24,000 nucleotides of DNA from Candidatus Heimdallarchaeota archaeon. GTDB taxonomy: Archaea > Asgardarchaeota > Heimdallarchaeia > Heimdallarchaeales > Heimdallarchaeaceae. Positions 1,308-11,667 of the stretch are shown piece after piece. The position numbers and the translations under genes are program-made. Position 1 is the stretch's first letter, and each line of letters starts with the position of its first letter. The stretch spans positions 48,101 through 72,100 of the forward strand of contig DXJF01000097.1 of assembly GCA_019057375.1 (NCBI GenBank), written 5' to 3'. The notes under the pieces were generated by a model. That model was given only the letters and a program-made list of their open reading frames with translations. It was not told where the DNA came from and made no database searches.

Positions 1308-1465
1308 TATGATACCAATAACATCGCTTTATTTAATCATTTTTTTAATTGGTTAGAACAAGTGCTTAATCGCCAGGTTAAACGTTTTTAATATCAAGGT
1401 AAAGAGGATAAACCATATAGCTTAAGGTTAAACCAACCAGTGAAAAAATCCACAAAAGGTAAGAA

Positions 1466-1507
1466 TGGTGCGGGGAGGGAGATTCGAACTCCCGAACCAC
1501 TAAGGAA
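1466..1507 (-). repeat. tRNA-Leu(UAA) 3'-end fragment (CCA, acceptor 3' strand, T-arm, variable arm); distal att-like direct repeat
   Basis: tggtgcggggagggagattcgaactcccga is identical over the first 30 nt to 6073-6102 of the intact tRNA gene. The next 12 nt (accactaaggaa vs actactaaagaa) have 2 mismatches. Similarity then degrades at about 1508. Confidence 0.85.
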
Positions 1508-1525
1508 AGGTGTTTTTTTATCGTG

Positions 1526-1533
1526 TTTAAATA
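1526..1533 (+). promoter_or_regulatory. Possible archaeal TATA box for a leaderless TnpB-like transcript
   Basis: tttaaata is centred about 26 nt upstream of the first ATG (1556) of the ORF, which is the spacing expected for archaeal TATA-to-TSS and a leaderless mRNA. AT-rich background makes this weak. Confidence 0.25.
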
Positions 1534-1555: not shown

Positions 1556-3481
1556 ATGAATTCTGTGCTTGTAAAAGATCTCGAAGAAGAAAAGGAAGTT
1601 CAAAAAACCTATTCCTTAGTTCTTAGATTTCAAAATCTAGCACAAAGAAAAGAAGCTAACCATCGAGTCAGCGATTTAGAAGATAAACAATCACTATTAC
1701 TATATGATACTTCTACTCAAAAAATTGCAAGAGATTTAGCTCGCGAAAATCCAAATGTTTCATTTCCTATTTCTAAAATCCAAAAATCTTCGAGGAGCAG
1801 TTCAAATATCTCTTTCAGTGCTTATAATTGGTTGTTTGCAGCATCAAAAGTGTCTGTTGATAAGGAAAAGAAAGTAGCTGATTTATTCCAGTTTCTGTTA
1901 CAAAATCCACAGCAAGCAATTGAATGGGTGATTCTTGGACGTTCTCCCTATACTGAAATTTCTCTTTCGAAGAAATGGAGAGTAGATTATGTATATGTTA
2001 TAAATCTCTTGACAAGTACTAGACGAAAAACTAACACTTATTGGAAAAAGAATTTTACTATGAGCTTTAAAGAAAAGCAACTAGAGTTCAATTCAAAGCT
2101 TCCAAAGACAACACAATTTGAAGTTGAACAAGCAATACAAGACTGCTATGAAGTAAAGGTAGAAGAGTATGCAAAATTGAAGAAAACTACTGAAAAACAA
2201 TATACTTTTCTTGATAAATTAGCTTTGGTAGTGAAACATAAGTATGTTATAGCTCCATATGTAACTTCTTGGATTAATCTTTCTCAAAAAGCTCGGTGGA
2301 AAAGCTTAAAGCAACTGAGTAAACAACTTGCTGAAACGATTGGTCAAATCAATGAAAAACTCCATTCTACAATAAGATTGATAGTAGTTTTTGCACTCTT
2401 CTCAAAACTGTGGGGGACTGTATCTAAATTAATTGATTCAACTAATCCAGAAGAAGTTGTAAGTTCTCCGTTTGAAAGAAAAAAAGCGAATTTACCAATT
2501 AAAATGTTAATGAAACATGAATATGACATAATTCGACCTGGTAACTCTCAAAAGATGACACAACTTGCTAAAGAACAAGGATGCTTTGAACTTGGATTTC
2601 CATGTAAAGGAAAAAAAAGAATAACAGGTAATCTTCTGTTTACAGAAAAAATTATCGAATATCTGAAAAATGGTGCTAGTGTAAGAATCTTACAAATTAA
2701 AAGTGGAAAAGCTCCTAACTACAAACCCAAGATTTCAGTTGTTCTTCATGGTACTCCTAGCATGTTTGTGAGCACCAAACTAGCACAAAAATATGCTAAC
2801 AGTATGAATCTCACTGCTGCTAATATCTTAGGGCTAGATGTCAATAGAGTAGGAAAACACATGTTGTCGTTCTCTAATGAAGTTCCATTGGATTCTAGAT
2901 TGAGATCTTTATCAAACCATTACCTCTCCTTAACAAGAAAAGAAATTCCAAGATTGAGTAACTCACTAAAAACTAAAGGTAAGCAAAAAGATAGTTATGG
3001 TTATATTAAAACAAAGGGTGAGCTAAATAGGATATATAACAAAAGAACTAATATAATTAAGGAAATTAAGAGAATAATACCACATTACATTGCGGGAGTT
3101 ATTATCAAGAGTAAGTGTAAATTTTTTTGTATAGAAGAGTTTCGTAAGAATCCAAGAGGGAAAAGAGGTGCATTAGCAAAAGCAATATACAACATGCCTT
3201 ACGAAGACAATATTTTTGAAAAAGCAGTCCAGATTGCGACTCACATTCTTAGTTATAAAGTGAAACTTGTATATGTAAGTGCTCGTAACACAAGTAAATA
3301 TCATTATAGTTGTAGAGGTGTGATTCAAAGAGATCTTAAAAATTATGATTATGCTCTCTGTAAAAAATGTGGTGAACGAGTAAATACACATATTAATGCT
3401 GCTAAAAACATTGCGAAGAAAGGAGAAACAATAATAAAGCAAATCAAGCTTCCCCTAGACGCCGCTAAGGGGACGGGGTAA
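1556..3481 (+). CDS. Large TnpB/Cas12-like RuvC-fold protein (putative RNA-guided effector) with a non-canonical RuvC-III motif
   Basis: ORF track 1523..3481 starts at a GTG; the first ATG is 1556. The C-terminal core contains ILGLDVN (RuvC-I), FFCIEEF (RuvC-II), ARNTSKYHYSC...CKKCG (zinc finger) and NTHINAAKNI (RuvC-III signature xxDxNAAxNI, with His in place of Asp). About 430 aa precede RuvC-I. Confidence 0.75.
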   Translation: MNSVLVKDLEEEKEVQKTYSLVLRFQNLAQRKEANHRVSDLEDKQSLLLYDTSTQKIARDLARENPNVSFPISKIQKSSRSSSNISFSAYNWLFAASKVSVDKEKKVADLFQFLLQNPQQAIEWVILGRSPYTEISLSKKWRVDYVYVINLLTSTRRKTNTYWKKNFTMSFKEKQLEFNSKLPKTTQFEVEQAIQDCYEVKVEEYAKLKKTTEKQYTFLDKLALVVKHKYVIAPYVTSWINLSQKARWKSLKQLSKQLAETIGQINEKLHSTIRLIVVFALFSKLWGTVSKLIDSTNPEEVVSSPFERKKANLPIKMLMKHEYDIIRPGNSQKMTQLAKEQGCFELGFPCKGKKRITGNLLFTEKIIEYLKNGASVRILQIKSGKAPNYKPKISVVLHGTPSMFVSTKLAQKYANSMNLTAANILGLDVNRVGKHMLSFSNEVPLDSRLRSLSNHYLSLTRKEIPRLSNSLKTKGKQKDSYGYIKTKGELNRIYNKRTNIIKEIKRIIPHYIAGVIIKSKCKFFCIEEFRKNPRGKRGALAKAIYNMPYEDNIFEKAVQIATHILSYKVKLVYVSARNTSKYHYSCRGVIQRDLKNYDYALCKKCGERVNTHINAAKNIAKKGETIIKQIKLPLDAAKGTG

Positions 3482-3546
3482 ATAAACCCCTCAAGTAAAC
3501 CTAAAGTTTCTACGAGAACCTAGTAAACTTCATTACGTGCGTGGAA
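3440..3546 (+). ncRNA. Candidate omega-RNA/reRNA-like scaffold overlapping the 3' end of the TnpB-like ORF
   Basis: Four G4/C4 tracts lie within 40 nt in an AT-rich context. Hairpin 1 is cccctag(3452-3458)/ctaagggg(3465-3472). Hairpin 2 is gggg(3475-3478)/cccc(3487-3490) and spans the stop codon (3479-3481). The position is analogous to TnpB omega-RNAs. There is no expression evidence. Confidence 0.2.
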
Positions 3547-3558
3547 CGGATGACTTAT
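3543..3558 (-). repeat. Short tRNA-Leu-derived fragment (anticodon-stem 3' strand plus intron start)
   Basis: ggaacggatgacttat compared with copy 2 ggaacggatttcttat (3649-3664) gives 14/16 matches, including a 9-nt exact core. Confidence 0.5.
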
Positions 3559-3610
3559 TATTTTAATAAATAATAGTTAGCTTAGATAAGAAAAATAGAT
3601 TTGAAAAAAT

Positions 3611-3714
3611 TGGTGCGGAGAGGGAGATTCGAACTCCCGAACTACAAAGGAACGGATTTCTTATCTATTCTCTAACCCTTATCTTAGGTTTAAAACTAAG
3701 ATCTTAAGTCCACC
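3611..3714 (-). repeat. Truncated tRNA-Leu(UAA) copy (3' exon, intron, anticodon loop and 5' anticodon-stem strand; no D-arm or 5' acceptor); att-like direct repeat
   Basis: It aligns column by column with 6073-6176 of the intact gene. The exon part has about 3 mismatches in 47 nt. The intron part has about 10 mismatches plus a 1-nt indel in 44 nt. It diverges completely after tcc(a/g)cc. The acceptor 3' strand is mutated (TCTCCGC). Confidence 0.85.
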
Positions 3715-3760
3715 TTGAAACATAAAAGTATTAAAGGTTTAAAAGACAAAATAGGATTAA

Positions 3761-4639
3761 ATGTCTAGTAAAAATTGGGACACTGTAATAGAGTTACTAG
3801 AAACAATCACGCCCTCATATTACTTAGAAAAGGAGCTTAAAGCTACATTCAAATCTAATCTCCAATATAGAATAGGAAAATACTCTGAGAATTGTCGATA
3901 TTTCTTTCAGGAAGGTTTCGAAAAAAAATATTCAAATATTATTCCATCAGCAATAATTGTACCAAGGAAGTCAGGAACTAATATAAGCAAAATCGCAAAT
4001 GAAGCTGTTATATATTTTAAACAAAGCTTGGAATTGTTTAAAACATTGGATAACGTTGAAGAAAATGTGAGTCCATTATTGGAATATTATGGATTATTAC
4101 AATGTGTTAAGGGAGTAGTAATTTTAGAATTAGATGTGAAAAGTGACAAGATATTTAGTAAGCATGGTTTAACTCAAGAAACAAGATTTCATTCAAAAAT
4201 AGATGAACCAAAATCAACAAAAAAATATAAACTAAAAATGATTAAGAGAATTAAGCCATCAAAATATATCAACGCTAAAATTATGCCTTATGGTGTTTTA
4301 ACATCTTTAATCATTCGTTTCACAGATCATTATGATGAACTTTATTCTGACAGAGACATATACAAAATAAGTAAGCATTCTATGGATAAATACGTAACAG
4401 GATACTATAGACCTTCATTAGAAGAAATAACAACCAATCATCATGTAGATCCAATAATTGCTTTCATAGGTTCTTGGATGTTATCAACATTGGTAAGATA
4501 TAAAGCAAAAATGTGGCAAGAAATATGTTTGGGAGAAAAAGATGACATAATAAATAATATTAGAAAATTTAGGAGGGAAAAAATACCTAAAGCAGTAGAA
4601 ACTATGCTAATGGATTATGTAAGAAAGAGCTCTTGGTAA
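3761..4639 (+). CDS. YaaC-like protein (uncharacterised family)
   Basis: 292 aa. The blocks KYSENCRYFFQEG, SPLLEYYGLLQCVKGVVIL, SKHGL and LSTLVRYKAKMWQEI parallel, in the same order, the blocks I recall from B. subtilis YaaC (NCYRFLYYLEHG, PVLLFYGLSQLIKACLL, AHGV, ICRYETEWWSEL). The comparison is from memory. Confidence 0.5.
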   Translation: MSSKNWDTVIELLETITPSYYLEKELKATFKSNLQYRIGKYSENCRYFFQEGFEKKYSNIIPSAIIVPRKSGTNISKIANEAVIYFKQSLELFKTLDNVEENVSPLLEYYGLLQCVKGVVILELDVKSDKIFSKHGLTQETRFHSKIDEPKSTKKYKLKMIKRIKPSKYINAKIMPYGVLTSLIIRFTDHYDELYSDRDIYKISKHSMDKYVTGYYRPSLEEITTNHHVDPIIAFIGSWMLSTLVRYKAKMWQEICLGEKDDIINNIRKFRREKIPKAVETMLMDYVRKSSW

Positions 4640-4721
4640 CAGCTTAAAGAGTATTCATAAGTACTACAAAAGCTTAAAAAATAATGAATGAAAAAGGAAG
4701 GAGAGAAAGGAGGGGAGACAA

Positions 4722-6065
4722 GTGCAAGAGGATAATAGCGAAAATTTAGCTGAGCCAATAGGAATTAAAGAATTAGGAAAGAGAATAATTCTTCTCCCTT
4801 ATCACATTATAAGGCTCATAGTAAATAATGTTTTACTATTTATTTTAGGAAGTATAGAAAATGGAGTAATAATTGTAAGAGCAAAAAAAAGTATCAAGAT
4901 TGAAGAAGGAATAAAAAAACTCATACAGGAAAACGAATGTATTCTAAGAAAAAGTATCTACTTAAAGAAAAACGATAGTATAGACGAGATTAAACCAGAA
5001 GAGGAAGAAGAGCAAGAAGTAAAACGAATAAATGTTTTGAATAGAATAATGGCTATAGTAGTAATTTCAATAGTTTGGTCGTTTCAAATTGTGTTGAGAG
5101 TCATAGTTTGGATATTTATCTTGATTAATTGTTTAACCATTAGAAAGAAAGTAGGTTTAAAGGAGTGGGAAGAGAATAATTTGGGATATTACAGAGAAAC
5201 CATAAAATATCTTACAGGTATTAGTGAAGAAATACCTTTTTGGAAAGAATTAGGTGGTTGGGGCGAAGGTTTATTATTTATATTAGTATTTGATTTGGTT
5301 GTTATTAGGAATGGATTCTTAAGATTGTGTAGGATAATTCTTGGAGATACTTACAGTTATTATTTGATTATTTCGTTAGTATATATCATAATTTTCGTAA
5401 TTCTTATACCAAAATATCTGAAGTTTCCAAGTAAAAGTGGGGAAAGGAAAACTAAGCAAATAGTAAGAAGAATAGGAGTAAAAAAACCAAAAAGTATAGC
5501 AAGGACTCTCTTAATTGTGATTCTACTATTAGCAATTAAATTAGGAATTATTTATGGAATATCCTTGCTAATAGATTATAATGTAGAAAATTTTATTTTC
5601 CCAGTAAATACAGGTTATATAATTGCAGTAAGTATGAGTGCAGGTATTGCTGAAGAAATAATATACAGGGGATATGTAATAGAAGTAACAAAAAGAAAAT
5701 ATGGAACTTTAGTAACTATGATAATTTCAGGGTGTCTTTTTGGACTTGCACATTTTGCGCTTAATCCATCCATTTATAGTTTTGTTCAGATGTTGTTCGT
5801 AACCTTTATAGGAATAACATATGCGTATTTCAGAATTCTATCAGATTCATTGATAGGACCAATAGTCATGCACACAATATATGACATAATTGTACTATCA
5901 GTAGTATATACAACAGAAAAAATACCTGATTATGTCGTGTATTTGATAGCAATTACATTGAGTATTATAATAACAATAATTTCAATTAATTTGCTGAAAC
6001 TAATATACAAAGACAAAGAACTATTGATATTTAAGAAAAGAGGGAAAGAACAGAAGGAAGGATAA
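4722..6065 (+). CDS. Polytopic membrane protein with a C-terminal CPBP (CAAX protease / bacteriocin-processing, Abi) intramembrane metalloprotease domain
   Basis: 447 aa with a GTG start preceded by the purine-rich aggaggggag. There are many hydrophobic segments. The three CPBP motifs occur in order: AEEIIYRGY (EExxxR), LFGLAHF (FxxxH) and MHTIYD (HxxxD/N). Confidence 0.7.
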   Translation: MQEDNSENLAEPIGIKELGKRIILLPYHIIRLIVNNVLLFILGSIENGVIIVRAKKSIKIEEGIKKLIQENECILRKSIYLKKNDSIDEIKPEEEEEQEVKRINVLNRIMAIVVISIVWSFQIVLRVIVWIFILINCLTIRKKVGLKEWEENNLGYYRETIKYLTGISEEIPFWKELGGWGEGLLFILVFDLVVIRNGFLRLCRIILGDTYSYYLIISLVYIIIFVILIPKYLKFPSKSGERKTKQIVRRIGVKKPKSIARTLLIVILLLAIKLGIIYGISLLIDYNVENFIFPVNTGYIIAVSMSAGIAEEIIYRGYVIEVTKRKYGTLVTMIISGCLFGLAHFALNPSIYSFVQMLFVTFIGITYAYFRILSDSLIGPIVMHTIYDIIVLSVVYTTEKIPDYVVYLIAITLSIIITIISINLLKLIYKDKELLIFKKRGKEQKEG

Positions 6066-6072
6066 AGGAAAA

Positions 6073-6201
6073 TGGTGCGGGGAGGGAGATTCGAACTCCC
6101 GAACTACTAAAGAACGGATGGCTCATCTGACTTCTAACCCTTATCTTAGGCATAAACCAAGATCTTAAGTCCGCCGCCGTTGGCCACTTGGCTATCCCCG
6201 C
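6073..6201 (-). tRNA. tRNA-Leu(UAA), class II, with a 44-nt intron at the canonical 37/38 position and encoded CCA
   Basis: Hand-folded. Acceptor GCGGGGA/TCCCCGC; D-stem GCC/GGC with an 11-nt loop; anticodon stem GCGGA/TCCGT; loop CT-TAA-G[intron 6120-6163]A; 13-nt variable region; T-arm GGGAG-TTCGAAT-CTCCC; discriminator A; CCA at 6075-6073. Confidence 0.85.
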
Positions 6202-7744: not shown

Positions 7745-8434
7745 ATGAAGAAGATTGTACTAAAGTTTGGTGGTTCTGTTTTATACAAAGAAGAAATGGT
7801 TCTAAATGTTGAGAGAATAAAGGAAATTGTTGAAACCATTAACACCCTCCATGATGCAGGGCATAAAGTTGCTGTGGTTGTTGGAGGAGGAAAATTAGCG
7901 AGAGTTATCATTCAAGCAAGCGATGTCCTTGGACATGTATCTACTTTCAAAGACATTCTTGCAGTGGAATCAACTCGAATTCATGCTTTGCTAGTAATTG
8001 CTTCACTCCAAAATAAAGCATATTTGCTTGTTCCTCGTTCATTCGAAGAAATTGGTAAAGCACTCTCGACTGGAAAGATTGTTGTTACTGGAGGTCTTCA
8101 ACCAGGGCAATCTACAAATGCTGTTGCAGCTCTTGTAGCAGAATACTGGGGCGCTGATTTACTGATAAATTTGACAAATGTAGATAAGGTCTATGATAAA
8201 GATCCCAACCTGTTTGAAGATGCTAAACCTTTAGATGAACTTTCAGCGGATGAACTGTTGGAGATTATATCAAAACAAGATGAAGAACCAGGTAAATATG
8301 CCCTCTTTGACAGAGTAGGATGTGAAATAGTGAAAAGATCCAATTTAAGACTAATATTTACAAATGGTTCTGATCCTAAGAACATTTTGAGAATTGTTGA
8401 TGGAGAAAATATTGGAACTGTAGTTAATGGATAA
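7745..8434 (+). CDS. pyrH: Uridylate (UMP) kinase, archaeal type
   Basis: 229 aa. Amino-acid-kinase fold signatures LKFGGS and VAVVVGGGKLAR, followed by VVTGGLQPGQSTNAVAAL. Confidence 0.85.
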   Translation: MKKIVLKFGGSVLYKEEMVLNVERIKEIVETINTLHDAGHKVAVVVGGGKLARVIIQASDVLGHVSTFKDILAVESTRIHALLVIASLQNKAYLLVPRSFEEIGKALSTGKIVVTGGLQPGQSTNAVAALVAEYWGADLLINLTNVDKVYDKDPNLFEDAKPLDELSADELLEIISKQDEEPGKYALFDRVGCEIVKRSNLRLIFTNGSDPKNILRIVDGENIGTVVNG

Positions 8435-11557: not shown

Positions 11558-11667
11558 TGGTGGGGCATAGCAGATTTGAACTGCCGACCCCCCGGTTTTT
11601 GAGTTAAATGCTTAACAAACAAATAACATATCAGCCGAGTGCTCTAACCAAGCTGAGCTAATGCCCC
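11558..11667 (-). tRNA. tRNA-Ile(GAU) with a 32-nt intron at 37/38 and encoded CCA
   Basis: Hand-folded. Acceptor GGGGCAT/ATGCCCC; D-arm GCTC-AGCTTGGTTA-GAGC; anticodon stem CTCGG/CCGGG (one G.U); loop CT-GAT-A[intron 11597-11628]A; variable GGGTC; T-arm GGCAG-TTCAAAT-CTGCT; discriminator A; CCA at 11560-11558. Confidence 0.85.

Follow-up and report, generated by a model that had tools for sequence, protein, structure and literature searches.

What becomes of a TnpB when its transposase is gone, no CRISPR array lies beside it, a histidine stands where a catalytic aspartate is expected, and the gene has settled against a tRNA? The question is raised by a 24,000-nucleotide stretch of a Candidatus Heimdallarchaeota archaeon (contig DXJF01000097.1, positions 48,101 to 72,100; called here the window, position 1 being its first letter), in which an open reading frame (ORF) encodes a TnpB-like protein. 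A preliminary description, made from the sequence alone, had singled out this protein for its D-E-H RuvC triad and had left it either a nuclease-dead binder or an active variant. We lean slightly toward the view that the window copy, though immobilised, still works as an RNA-guided TnpB and has a fixed guide derived from a tRNA. Its guide RNA (omegaRNA) and tRNA context, which the preliminary description missed, are more unusual features than the histidine site. The gene and its promoter region are laid out as follows.

1525..1533, + strand: TATA-like box GTTTAAATA, about 26 nt before the tnpB ATG, read from the sequence and kept upstream of nearly all family members
1556..3481, + strand: tnpB-like coding sequence of 641 aa, with a WED domain, an expanded recognition (REC) region, RuvC residues D428/E527/H612 and a zinc ribbon of H583/C586/C602/C605

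The ORF runs from an ATG at 1556 to a stop codon at 3479-3481; a GTG at 1523 opens a stop-to-stop extension upstream, and the ortholog alignments begin at the ATG. Its product is a genuine TnpB-family protein. The sole Pfam match is PF07282 (Cas12f1-like TNB domain; 27.6 bits against a cut-off of 26.3), the PADLOC Cas12f models match down to 5e-10, and the NCBIfam guided_TnpB model covers residues 388-622 at 29 bits, below its cut-off of 100. When an AlphaFold2 model built on 16 homologs (predicted local distance difference test score, 84) was searched with Foldseek, all 38 PDB matches at E<=1e-3 were Cas12, TnpB, Fanzor or TranC proteins. These comprise Cas12f, Cas12h/k/m/lambda, Fanzor2, TranC and ISDra2 TnpB, with the best E-value going to Cas12f (3.6e-9) and 6.5e-4 to ISDra2 TnpB 8h1j. 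In the model the WED beta-sheet is interrupted by an all-helical region at residues 28-301, and because of this split 427 residues stand ahead of RuvC-I. A TnpB/Cas12-type protein with some 430 aa before RuvC-I and an enlarged N-terminal recognition part had been proposed from the letters alone, and the profile matches, the residue count and the helical REC region agree with that proposal.

The motifs and codon positions read at that stage were exact as well. Asp428 (codon 2837-2839) lies in the RuvC-I sequence GLDVNR, Glu527 (codon 3134-3136) in the RuvC-II sequence FCIEEF, and His612 (codon 3389-3391) in the RuvC-III region CKKCGERVNTHINAAKNI, where the motif is NTHxNAA instead of DRDxN/NADxN; the zinc ligands His583, Cys586, Cys602 and Cys605 are found in TSKYHYSC...CKKCGERVNTHINAAKNI. 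The hand alignment that had put the histidine at the third-carboxylate position was upheld when the family profile was aligned with PDB sequences. There, 'CkkCgkkvnthlnaakni' pairs with 'CKKCGYKVNADYNAARNI' of CnCas12f1 and '...NADYNAALNI' of Un1Cas12f1, which places His612 at the position of a catalytic aspartate, one that we take, from the Cas12f literature, to be D510 of Un1Cas12f1. LaTranC was likewise compared at the RuvC-III position. Asp428 and Glu527, for their part, line up with the RuvC motifs of Cas12f and TnpB chains.

Relatives of the protein were gathered by a word-indexed search (16 close relatives, 40-62% identity), by a profile search of 1.84 billion cluster representatives (535 proteins at E<=1e-3) and by a scan of GTDB species genomes. 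This last scan yielded 79 loci, nearly all in metagenome-assembled genomes (MAGs) labelled Heimdallarchaeota and a few in MAGs labelled Thorarchaeota, with seven or more tnpB copies in some MAGs. Of two metagenome scans, the first gave none and the second one further locus, L090. The motifs GxDxNR, IE, (V/I)N(T/S/V)H and HxxC are universal in the 52 complete copies. In an alignment of 85 sequences, drawn from both clades of the family and from 14 distant 50%-cluster representatives, D428, N430, E527, H612, C586, C602 and C605 occur in all 85 and H583 in 84. Scoring histidine against aspartate among homologs had been suggested in the preliminary description as a check, and the outcome is a conserved substitution: because the D/E/H residues and the His-Cys3 ligands are invariant or nearly so in these relatives, His612 does not reflect decay. 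On this alignment, the RuvC-III histidine and the His-Cys3 zinc ribbon are ancestral, invariant traits of the whole lineage.

Two further observations concern the protein family. Asp598 (codon 3347-3349), which lies in the zinc-ribbon motif 'YD..C..C' 14 residues before His612, is kept in 84 of the 85 relatives, and its carboxylate could be near the altered RuvC site. Several distant members (P0068 of 1669 aa, P0075 of 1784 aa, P0040, P0044 and P0055) are two to three times longer and may be fusions or tandem arrangements; P0068 and P0075 have weak MazE/AbrB-like matches near residue 650-700, upstream of the TnpB-like part.

The combination of D-E-H with a non-C4 finger is not new, having already been described for the clade RIIIr-4 by Altae-Tran et al. 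(2023, PNAS; PMC10691335). RIIIr-4 is a major TnpB clade with a conserved D-to-H change at RuvC-III and a lost C4 finger; it includes archaeal TnpBs linked to MazE or ribbon-helix-helix (RHH) genes, and its activity was inferred from conservation (PMC10691335). The present family resembles it in described traits, rather than by placement in a tree: a RuvC-III histidine, no C4 finger (here His-Cys3) and a strong archaeal component, to which the weak MazE/AbrB matches of P0068 and P0075 may be added. It differs in its size of about 640 aa with a helical REC expansion of about 270 aa, in its linkage to an IS607 TnpA instead of an antitoxin gene, and in its tRNA-linked immobile paralogs, which go unmentioned in the text of PMC10691335.

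The linkage to IS607 emerges from the relatives. When all loci were compared with one another, homology on the left was found to begin about 795 nt upstream of the conserved N-terminal codon or, in truncated copies, near the tnpB promoter. The full-length left end begins (T/A)AC(C/T)GTnnnnnACTG, and copies that possess it encode a protein of 200-250 aa with a MerR helix-turn-helix (HTH) and a resolvase domain (Resolvase, 6e-21). Since this TnpA scores 170.9 bits with the NCBIfam IS607 transposase model NF033518, whose cut-off is 110, the family is of IS607 type. TnpA is present in at least 15 relatives and absent from the window. The lack of TnpA that had been noted is thus correct for the window copy and wrong for the family, whose full-length members carry an IS607 serine recombinase; nor is the protein an orphan of Cas12-like lineage, for it belongs to a transposon family with a clear omegaRNA. 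Elements of this lineage, which are of IS607 type, combine a serine-recombinase TnpA with TnpB and a 3' omegaRNA; those known to date come from Asgard MAGs that bear the label Heimdallarchaeota or Thorarchaeota. A neighbour-joining tree separates a multicopy clade, often with TnpA and with unrelated flanks, from tnpB-only lineages that are each tied to one tRNA. No TAM (target-adjacent motif) consensus was found at the left flanks of the mobile copies.

The window copy belongs to one of the tnpB-only lineages. Its homology with relatives begins at the TATA-like box (1525-1533), leaving neither left end nor TnpA, and its locus is shared with four orthologs: a bactofilin-like gene, tnpB, tRNA-Leu and the aspartyl-tRNA synthetase (AspRS) gene follow one another in a common synteny. 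The same bactofilin-like gene lies upstream in L012 and L013 (55-58% identity), and tRNA-Leu with AspRS (78% identity) lies downstream in L007. Among syntenic copies the TnpB proteins are 58-86% identical, with ratios of nonsynonymous to synonymous substitution (dN/dS) of 0.10-0.16; L007 and L013 form an unsaturated pair (dN 0.080, dS 0.53). Judged by these comparisons, the window copy is a vertically inherited and selected gene, neither a recent insertion nor a pseudogene. That it might be the decaying pseudogene of a dead transposon would fit the missing TnpA, the missing left end and the non-canonical catalytic residue. However, all five syntenic or related copies have intact ORFs of 641-656 aa, and promoter and omegaRNA are conserved; the dN/dS values and the histidine in 85 of 85 relatives effectively refute this reading.

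What selection has kept is not the protein alone. In the window and its orthologs, DNA-level conservation covers the last tnpB codons, the stop codon and 60 nt downstream, where the following parts can be recognised.

3448..3544, + strand: 3' part of the omegaRNA scaffold, comprising hairpins, a third stem and a terminal block, with its flank conserved in orthologs
3452-3472, + strand: hairpin 1, inside the last tnpB codons
3475-3490, + strand: hairpin 2, spanning the tnpB stop codon, with the third stem next
3528-3544, + strand: terminal block CTTCATTACGTGCG(T)GG, found in all copies

Across the family the terminal block reads AACCAAGTTTCATAACGTG(C/T)G followed by T, lies 20-60 nt past the stop codon and is conserved in 66 loci, homology ending a few bases after it. 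Scaffolds end ...CGTGCG before that T, and hypervariable sequence starts there: the information content of 44 distinct mobile copies is about 2 bits up to position +1 and about 0.1-0.3 bits beyond it. Hairpin 1 (CCCCUC...GAGGGG), which is formed from C-terminal codons, is kept with compensatory changes in 40 diverse copies. Its loop, ACGCACGU, pairs with the scaffold 3' end, ACGUGCGU, directly before the variable sequence, to give a pseudoknot in which seven of eight pairs have changed on both sides among the same copies. Over the whole structure, 86.6% of cells were paired, against 24-64% for slid controls, and no shuffle reached the covariation. RNAalifold alone gave hairpin 1 only, and the pseudoknot was specified by hand. 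Covariation is also seen between immobile sub-lineages of the group tied to tRNA-Cys (CGCAUGU/ACAUGCG against CGCAUAC/GUAUGCG), which argues that the RNA structure stayed under selection after immobilisation. At the level of sequence, then, the loci appear to have the 3' guide RNA expected of TnpB and Cas12, a conserved scaffold followed by a variable guide. Rfam returned no family besides tRNA in the window region or in the related loci scanned, and the downstream motif GTTCACTCA, reported for aCas1-linked Asgard TnpBs, was absent from the 44 distinct mobile copies.

In the window, the sequence that takes the place of the guide is a piece of tRNA-Leu, and other pieces of the same tRNA lie on either side.

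1464..1505, - strand: orphan tRNA-Leu(UAA) 3' fragment (T arm, acceptor 3' strand and variable arm), a member of direct-repeat family D1; BLAST aligns 1466-1503 at 97% to tRNA positions 92-129
3543..3558, + strand: guide-position segment GGAACGGATGACTTAT, a degenerate copy of the junction between the tRNA-Leu anticodon-stem 3' strand and the intron
3607..3714, - strand: displaced tRNA-Leu 3' portion including the intron, about 108 nt, in repeat families D1 and D10; BLAST 86% over 101 nt
3715..6068, + strand: separate insertion in the tRNA gene, outside the TnpB unit, with a YaaC-like gene (3761-4639) and a CPBP/CAAX-protease + DUF4389 gene (4722-6065)
6073..6201, - strand: intact tRNA-Leu(UAA) with a 44-nt intron (Rfam RF00005, 44.2 bits; ARAGORN with intron search), antisense to tnpB

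The guide-position segment follows the scaffold end ...CGTGCGTGG directly and reproduces the anticodon-stem 3' strand with the end of the intron. Within the window it has near-matches only at 3649-3664, with two mismatches, and at 6111-6126, with three, in the displaced and the intact tRNA-Leu respectively; the chance expectation was 0.16, and in none of 100 shuffles were there three or more matches. The orphan fragment (38-44 nt) stands directly upstream of the tnpB promoter and ends ...CTAAGG, the very point of the tRNA at which the guide segment starts, and a decayed equivalent occurs in L013 and L006. IS607 elements end in GG and insert behind a GG, with no target-site duplication. At the junctions themselves, the left flank of the window copy reads ...TAAGG and its right end ...GCGTGG. 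A GG before the left end was not seen in the left flanks of mobile copies, and it is around the immobile copies that tRNA segments are duplicated. In orthologs the scaffold is 93-94% identical, the guide segment 70-74% and the following 24 nt 33-36%; pairwise within the group of the window, the guide segment is 70% identical as against 36% for the 24 nt after it. We call these segments fixed guides: they are under constraint, and are presumably used as guides.

Comparison with orthologs indicates the original arrangement. Where the window has the displaced portion, L007, L013 and L006 have an intact tRNA, which originally lay about 40-90 nt after tnpB; the 2.35-kb insertion later split tRNA-Leu and duplicated 108 nt. 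As an element in its own right, this insertion is flanked by 108-nt direct repeats (3607-3714 and 6069-6175) that include the tRNA intron, and it is absent from L007. No integrase was found in it, and neither its YaaC-like nor its CPBP gene had a PADLOC match.

The arrangement in the window is one of several, since sister lineages are linked in comparable ways to other tRNAs.

Leu(UAA): window, L006/L011, L007, L012 and L013; intact antisense tRNA 40-90 nt after the right end in L006/L011, L007 and L013; guide from the anticodon-stem/intron junction, the L012 contig stopping 16 nt after the gene
Pro(UGG): L003-5 and L032; guide from the anticodon loop to the D arm, its first 12-13 nt identical
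Cys(GCA): nine loci; guide equal to the D arm, with 13-16 of about 18 positions matching
Asn(GUU): L015, L018, L030, L031 and L082 (partial, contig-truncated); intact tRNA on the same strand, 60-110 nt upstream
Ser(GCU): L014 and L090; intact tRNA upstream in L014, where 14 nt are identical, the L090 contig being without that region

What occupies the guide position in the Asn and Ser groups is a second copy of the tRNA end. Single MAGs hold several tRNA-linked paralogs, as in BPTM01 with its Leu, Cys and Asn copies. Such a series of fixed-guide paralogs appears to be undescribed for Asgard archaea in the searchable literature. Two ideas about the guides were tried and rejected. RNA targeting, in which the guide would pair with the (pre-)tRNA, was ruled out by the Asn group, whose tRNA lies on the tnpB strand and has a guide identical, not complementary, to it. 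Co-evolution or gene conversion between a guide and its own tRNA was dropped on the scores of the Cys group, which averaged 9.7 against own tRNAs and 11.3 against those of others, own tRNAs ranking about randomly.

Several of these loci show additional tRNA-related features. L002, a tnpB-only member of the mobile clade, has an intact tRNA-Val(CAC) on one side and a displaced 5' half of tRNA-Val on the other (5821-5898 and 7990-8029); the displaced half has compensatory stem changes (acceptor/anticodon GGGGCAG/CCACT against GGGGTGG/TCTCG), as if two alleles had been juxtaposed. In the Pro group, 19 nt of the tRNA-Pro 3' end are repeated perfectly 2.8 kb upstream of tnpB (L003 3225-3243 and 8012-8110; also in L004 and L032). 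Between the repeats lie tnpB and two genes without annotation (456 and 250 aa), an arrangement that recalls a larger integrated element with no recognisable integrase. The Ser-group loci L014 (about 6060-6150) and L090 (about 1970-2060) have in common a block of about 90 nt, GCCTAGTAAGGTCAGA...GGAAAGTTAAGTCCTTC, some 150 nt downstream of the guide, which has no Rfam match at gathering score and may be an unannotated structured RNA or the start of a gene. Finally, 'CGGAGCTAGCAAAAC', conserved about 150 nt upstream of tnpB in L048, L051, L054 and L060, looks like the 5' part of the tRNA-Cys sense strand. It runs in the opposite direction to the D-arm copy at the guide position and may be due to chance or be a second tRNA-derived fragment.

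The window copy has lost TnpA and its left end and has been inherited vertically at one locus under purifying selection. If it is indeed a functional RNA-guided TnpB, its action could be pictured as follows. The conserved TATA-like box GTTTAAATA is presumably the tnpB promoter, from which a leaderless tnpB mRNA would be predicted. The omegaRNA scaffold would form from the mRNA 3' end together with about 60 nt beyond it, and the 16-20 nt after ...CGTGCGTGG would act as a fixed guide. Because that guide derives from the tRNA-Leu anticodon-stem/intron junction, the ribonucleoprotein (RNP) would be directed at tRNA-Leu-like DNA. Its target could be the resident gene, through an exact TAM-proximal match of 8-9 nt, or other alleles, or nothing. 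The fixed guide may serve to bind the resident tRNA gene through a partial match and without cutting it, may act on other alleles or on incoming DNA (homing, or cleave-and-rescue), or may be a constrained scar.

As for the nuclease itself, the His-type RuvC site is probably catalytically competent. We judge so because the histidine is invariant in mobile copies and because histidine has precedents in such sites, taking part in the active sites of RuvC/Cas9 and of PIWI. Of the two readings left by the preliminary description, the active histidine variant seems better supported than the nuclease-dead one, since the same triad is invariant in mobile copies that carry TnpA.

A number of results weigh against a functional, tRNA-guided TnpB in the window. 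The guide differs from the resident tRNA at two to three of 16 positions, and in the Cys group at up to about five of 18; nor do guides match their own tRNA any better than the alleles of other genomes. By inspection, no TAM is shared across groups upstream of the matched tRNA segments. The pseudoknot of the window subgroup is shorter and weaker than elsewhere, with four to five pairs (ACGC/GCGU, possibly CCGC/GUGG), and the window scaffold folded as a single sequence does no better than shuffles (z = -0.88). No experimental test of a TnpB with a RuvC-III histidine was found in the searchable literature. Moreover, the tRNA-like flank could be the mere footprint of an insertion into a tRNA-like site.

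Two rivals draw on these points. According to one, the protein is a nuclease-dead (or self-target-silent) RNA-guided binder like TldR, Cas12m or Cas12k, which binds the tRNA-Leu gene but does not cut it, and in this way alters how that gene is transcribed or used as an integration site. An immobile, syntenic copy under purifying selection would suit such a role, as would a fixed and conserved guide that resembles a neighbouring host gene and a replaced catalytic aspartate. So would the short exact match, which covers no more than the first 8-9 nt (GGAACGGAT in the displaced copy at 3649-3664, GAACGGATG in the intact gene); guides are short in known TldRs, and a 9-nt guide is mentioned in 10.1101/2025.08.27.672191. 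Yet D428 and E527 are strictly kept, the same histidine is invariant in mobile, TnpA-bearing copies, and the window protein has no C-terminal truncation. In current models, mobile TnpB copies are maintained by cleavage-driven homing. TldRs, for their part, are truncated C-terminally. The target would, furthermore, lie inside a tRNA gene and not in a promoter, the mismatches of the Cys group sit in the TAM-proximal part, and no shared TAM is visible. We consider a dead binder unlikely, if still a serious contender.

According to the other, the tRNA segments are only scars, left by insertion into a duplicated tRNA or tRNA-like attachment (att) remnant or by recombination through a tRNA segment, and TnpB is kept for an unrelated reason. 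The guide of an IS605 or IS607 element is by definition the DNA flanking its right end (PMC13565253), so that a tRNA-like flank yields a tRNA-like guide. In addition, the left flank ...CTAAGG and the right flank AACGGAT are colinear with the tRNA, and the right end ...GCGTGG with a GG in the left flank is as usual for IS607 elements. The 19-nt tRNA-end repeat of the Pro group, 2.8 kb upstream as in an integrated element, and the absence of co-evolution between guides and their own tRNAs point the same way. A neutral scar, however, should have been randomised at dS >=1.7, whereas the guides keep 70-74% identity against 33-36% for adjacent DNA. Five or six different tRNAs also show the pattern, an intact tRNA standing next to it each time, and protein and omegaRNA structure remain under selection. 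Scars alone thus strike us as an unlikely account.

A variant of the functional reading is more speculative. The tRNA-linked copies might be natural cleave-and-rescue or guard modules, in which an active His-type TnpB with a fixed guide would cut the consensus allele of an essential tRNA gene and the tightly linked intact tRNA would escape through its mismatches. The clearest example offered is L002, with its displaced tRNA-Val half, its intact tRNA-Val and the compensatory stem changes between them. If this were true, a module of this kind would act as a drive, or as a stabiliser, for itself and for its tRNA allele in Asgard populations that recombine, and might also police tRNA genes, which are integration hot-spots; we regard it as a long shot.

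Set beside known systems, a functional TnpB with a fixed tRNA-derived guide shares features with several and coincides with none. With IS607 elements the family shares, in the relatives, a TnpA of MerR-HTH and resolvase type, a downstream tnpB and a right-end omegaRNA with a sharp scaffold/guide boundary, and in the window a right end ...GG and a left flank ending in GG. In contrast, the window copy is a tnpB-only derivative without TnpA or left end, its TnpB is about 1.6 times the usual size and D-E-H, and the mobile copies have no left-flank GG preference. Like TldRs (PMC10705468), it would be a domesticated, immobile TnpB derivative whose fixed guide is kept in orthologs and is similar to a host gene close by. 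Unlike them, it keeps D and E, a conserved histidine and a full-length TNB and C-terminus, its host is an archaeon, and its putative target lies inside a tRNA gene with two to three mismatches rather than in a host promoter. Over WED, RuvC and TNB, both structure and profile comparisons gave their best matches with Cas12f and ISDra2 TnpB (8j3r, 8hr5, 7l48, 8h1j), whose guide RNA also has a pseudoknot next to the guide. The window protein differs from them in its expanded REC and its histidine for the catalytic aspartate, and it is without a CRISPR array. A further parallel is offered by type V-K CRISPR-associated transposons (CASTs), which Saito and colleagues are said to have described in 2021 as homing to tRNA genes with an atypical, mismatched guide. 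Those elements reportedly also combine a TnpB/Cas12-family effector, a fixed tRNA-like guide and a position next to that tRNA; here there is no Tn7 machinery, and the element is on the TAM-proximal side of the match.

The lineage adds an IS607-linked Asgard branch of about 640 aa to the TnpB clades with a RuvC-III histidine and lends itself, as a natural example, to testing whether DNA is cut by a D-E-H RuvC site. Less expected is what is seen at the level of loci, where several ancient paralogs in the same genomes have each been fixed by a different tRNA (Leu, Pro, Cys, Asn or Ser) and each keeps its protein, omegaRNA structure and tRNA-derived guide under selection. If the guides are used, the loci would amount to an RNA-guided system, domesticated or self-stabilising, whose targets are tRNA genes in the archaea most closely related to eukaryotes, and would also offer compact effectors with expanded REC lobes for engineering. 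If they are not, the loci still show in what way tRNA genes can be colonised by IS607-type elements and yet survive.

The remainder of the 24-kb window is an ordinary archaeal chromosome with aRF1, Hef, a class I aminoacyl-tRNA synthetase, S3, L22, L24, AspRS and two intron-containing tRNAs; other ORFs of at least 140 aa are housekeeping genes or neighbours of the insert. No CRISPR-like array was found across the window, nor any cas gene or transposase among its ORFs of at least 140 aa, as the preliminary description had stated; the adjacent array and/or cas1/cas2 of a type V CRISPR-Cas system are therefore lacking here. Both tRNAs were recovered with Rfam and the intron option of ARAGORN, a default ARAGORN run having missed them. 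Each has its intron by the anticodon loop: tRNA-Phe(GAA) at 11558-11667 (- strand) one of 32 nt and tRNA-Leu(UAA) at 6073-6201 (- strand) one of 44 nt, the intron sites being ARAGORN positions 37 and 39, respectively.

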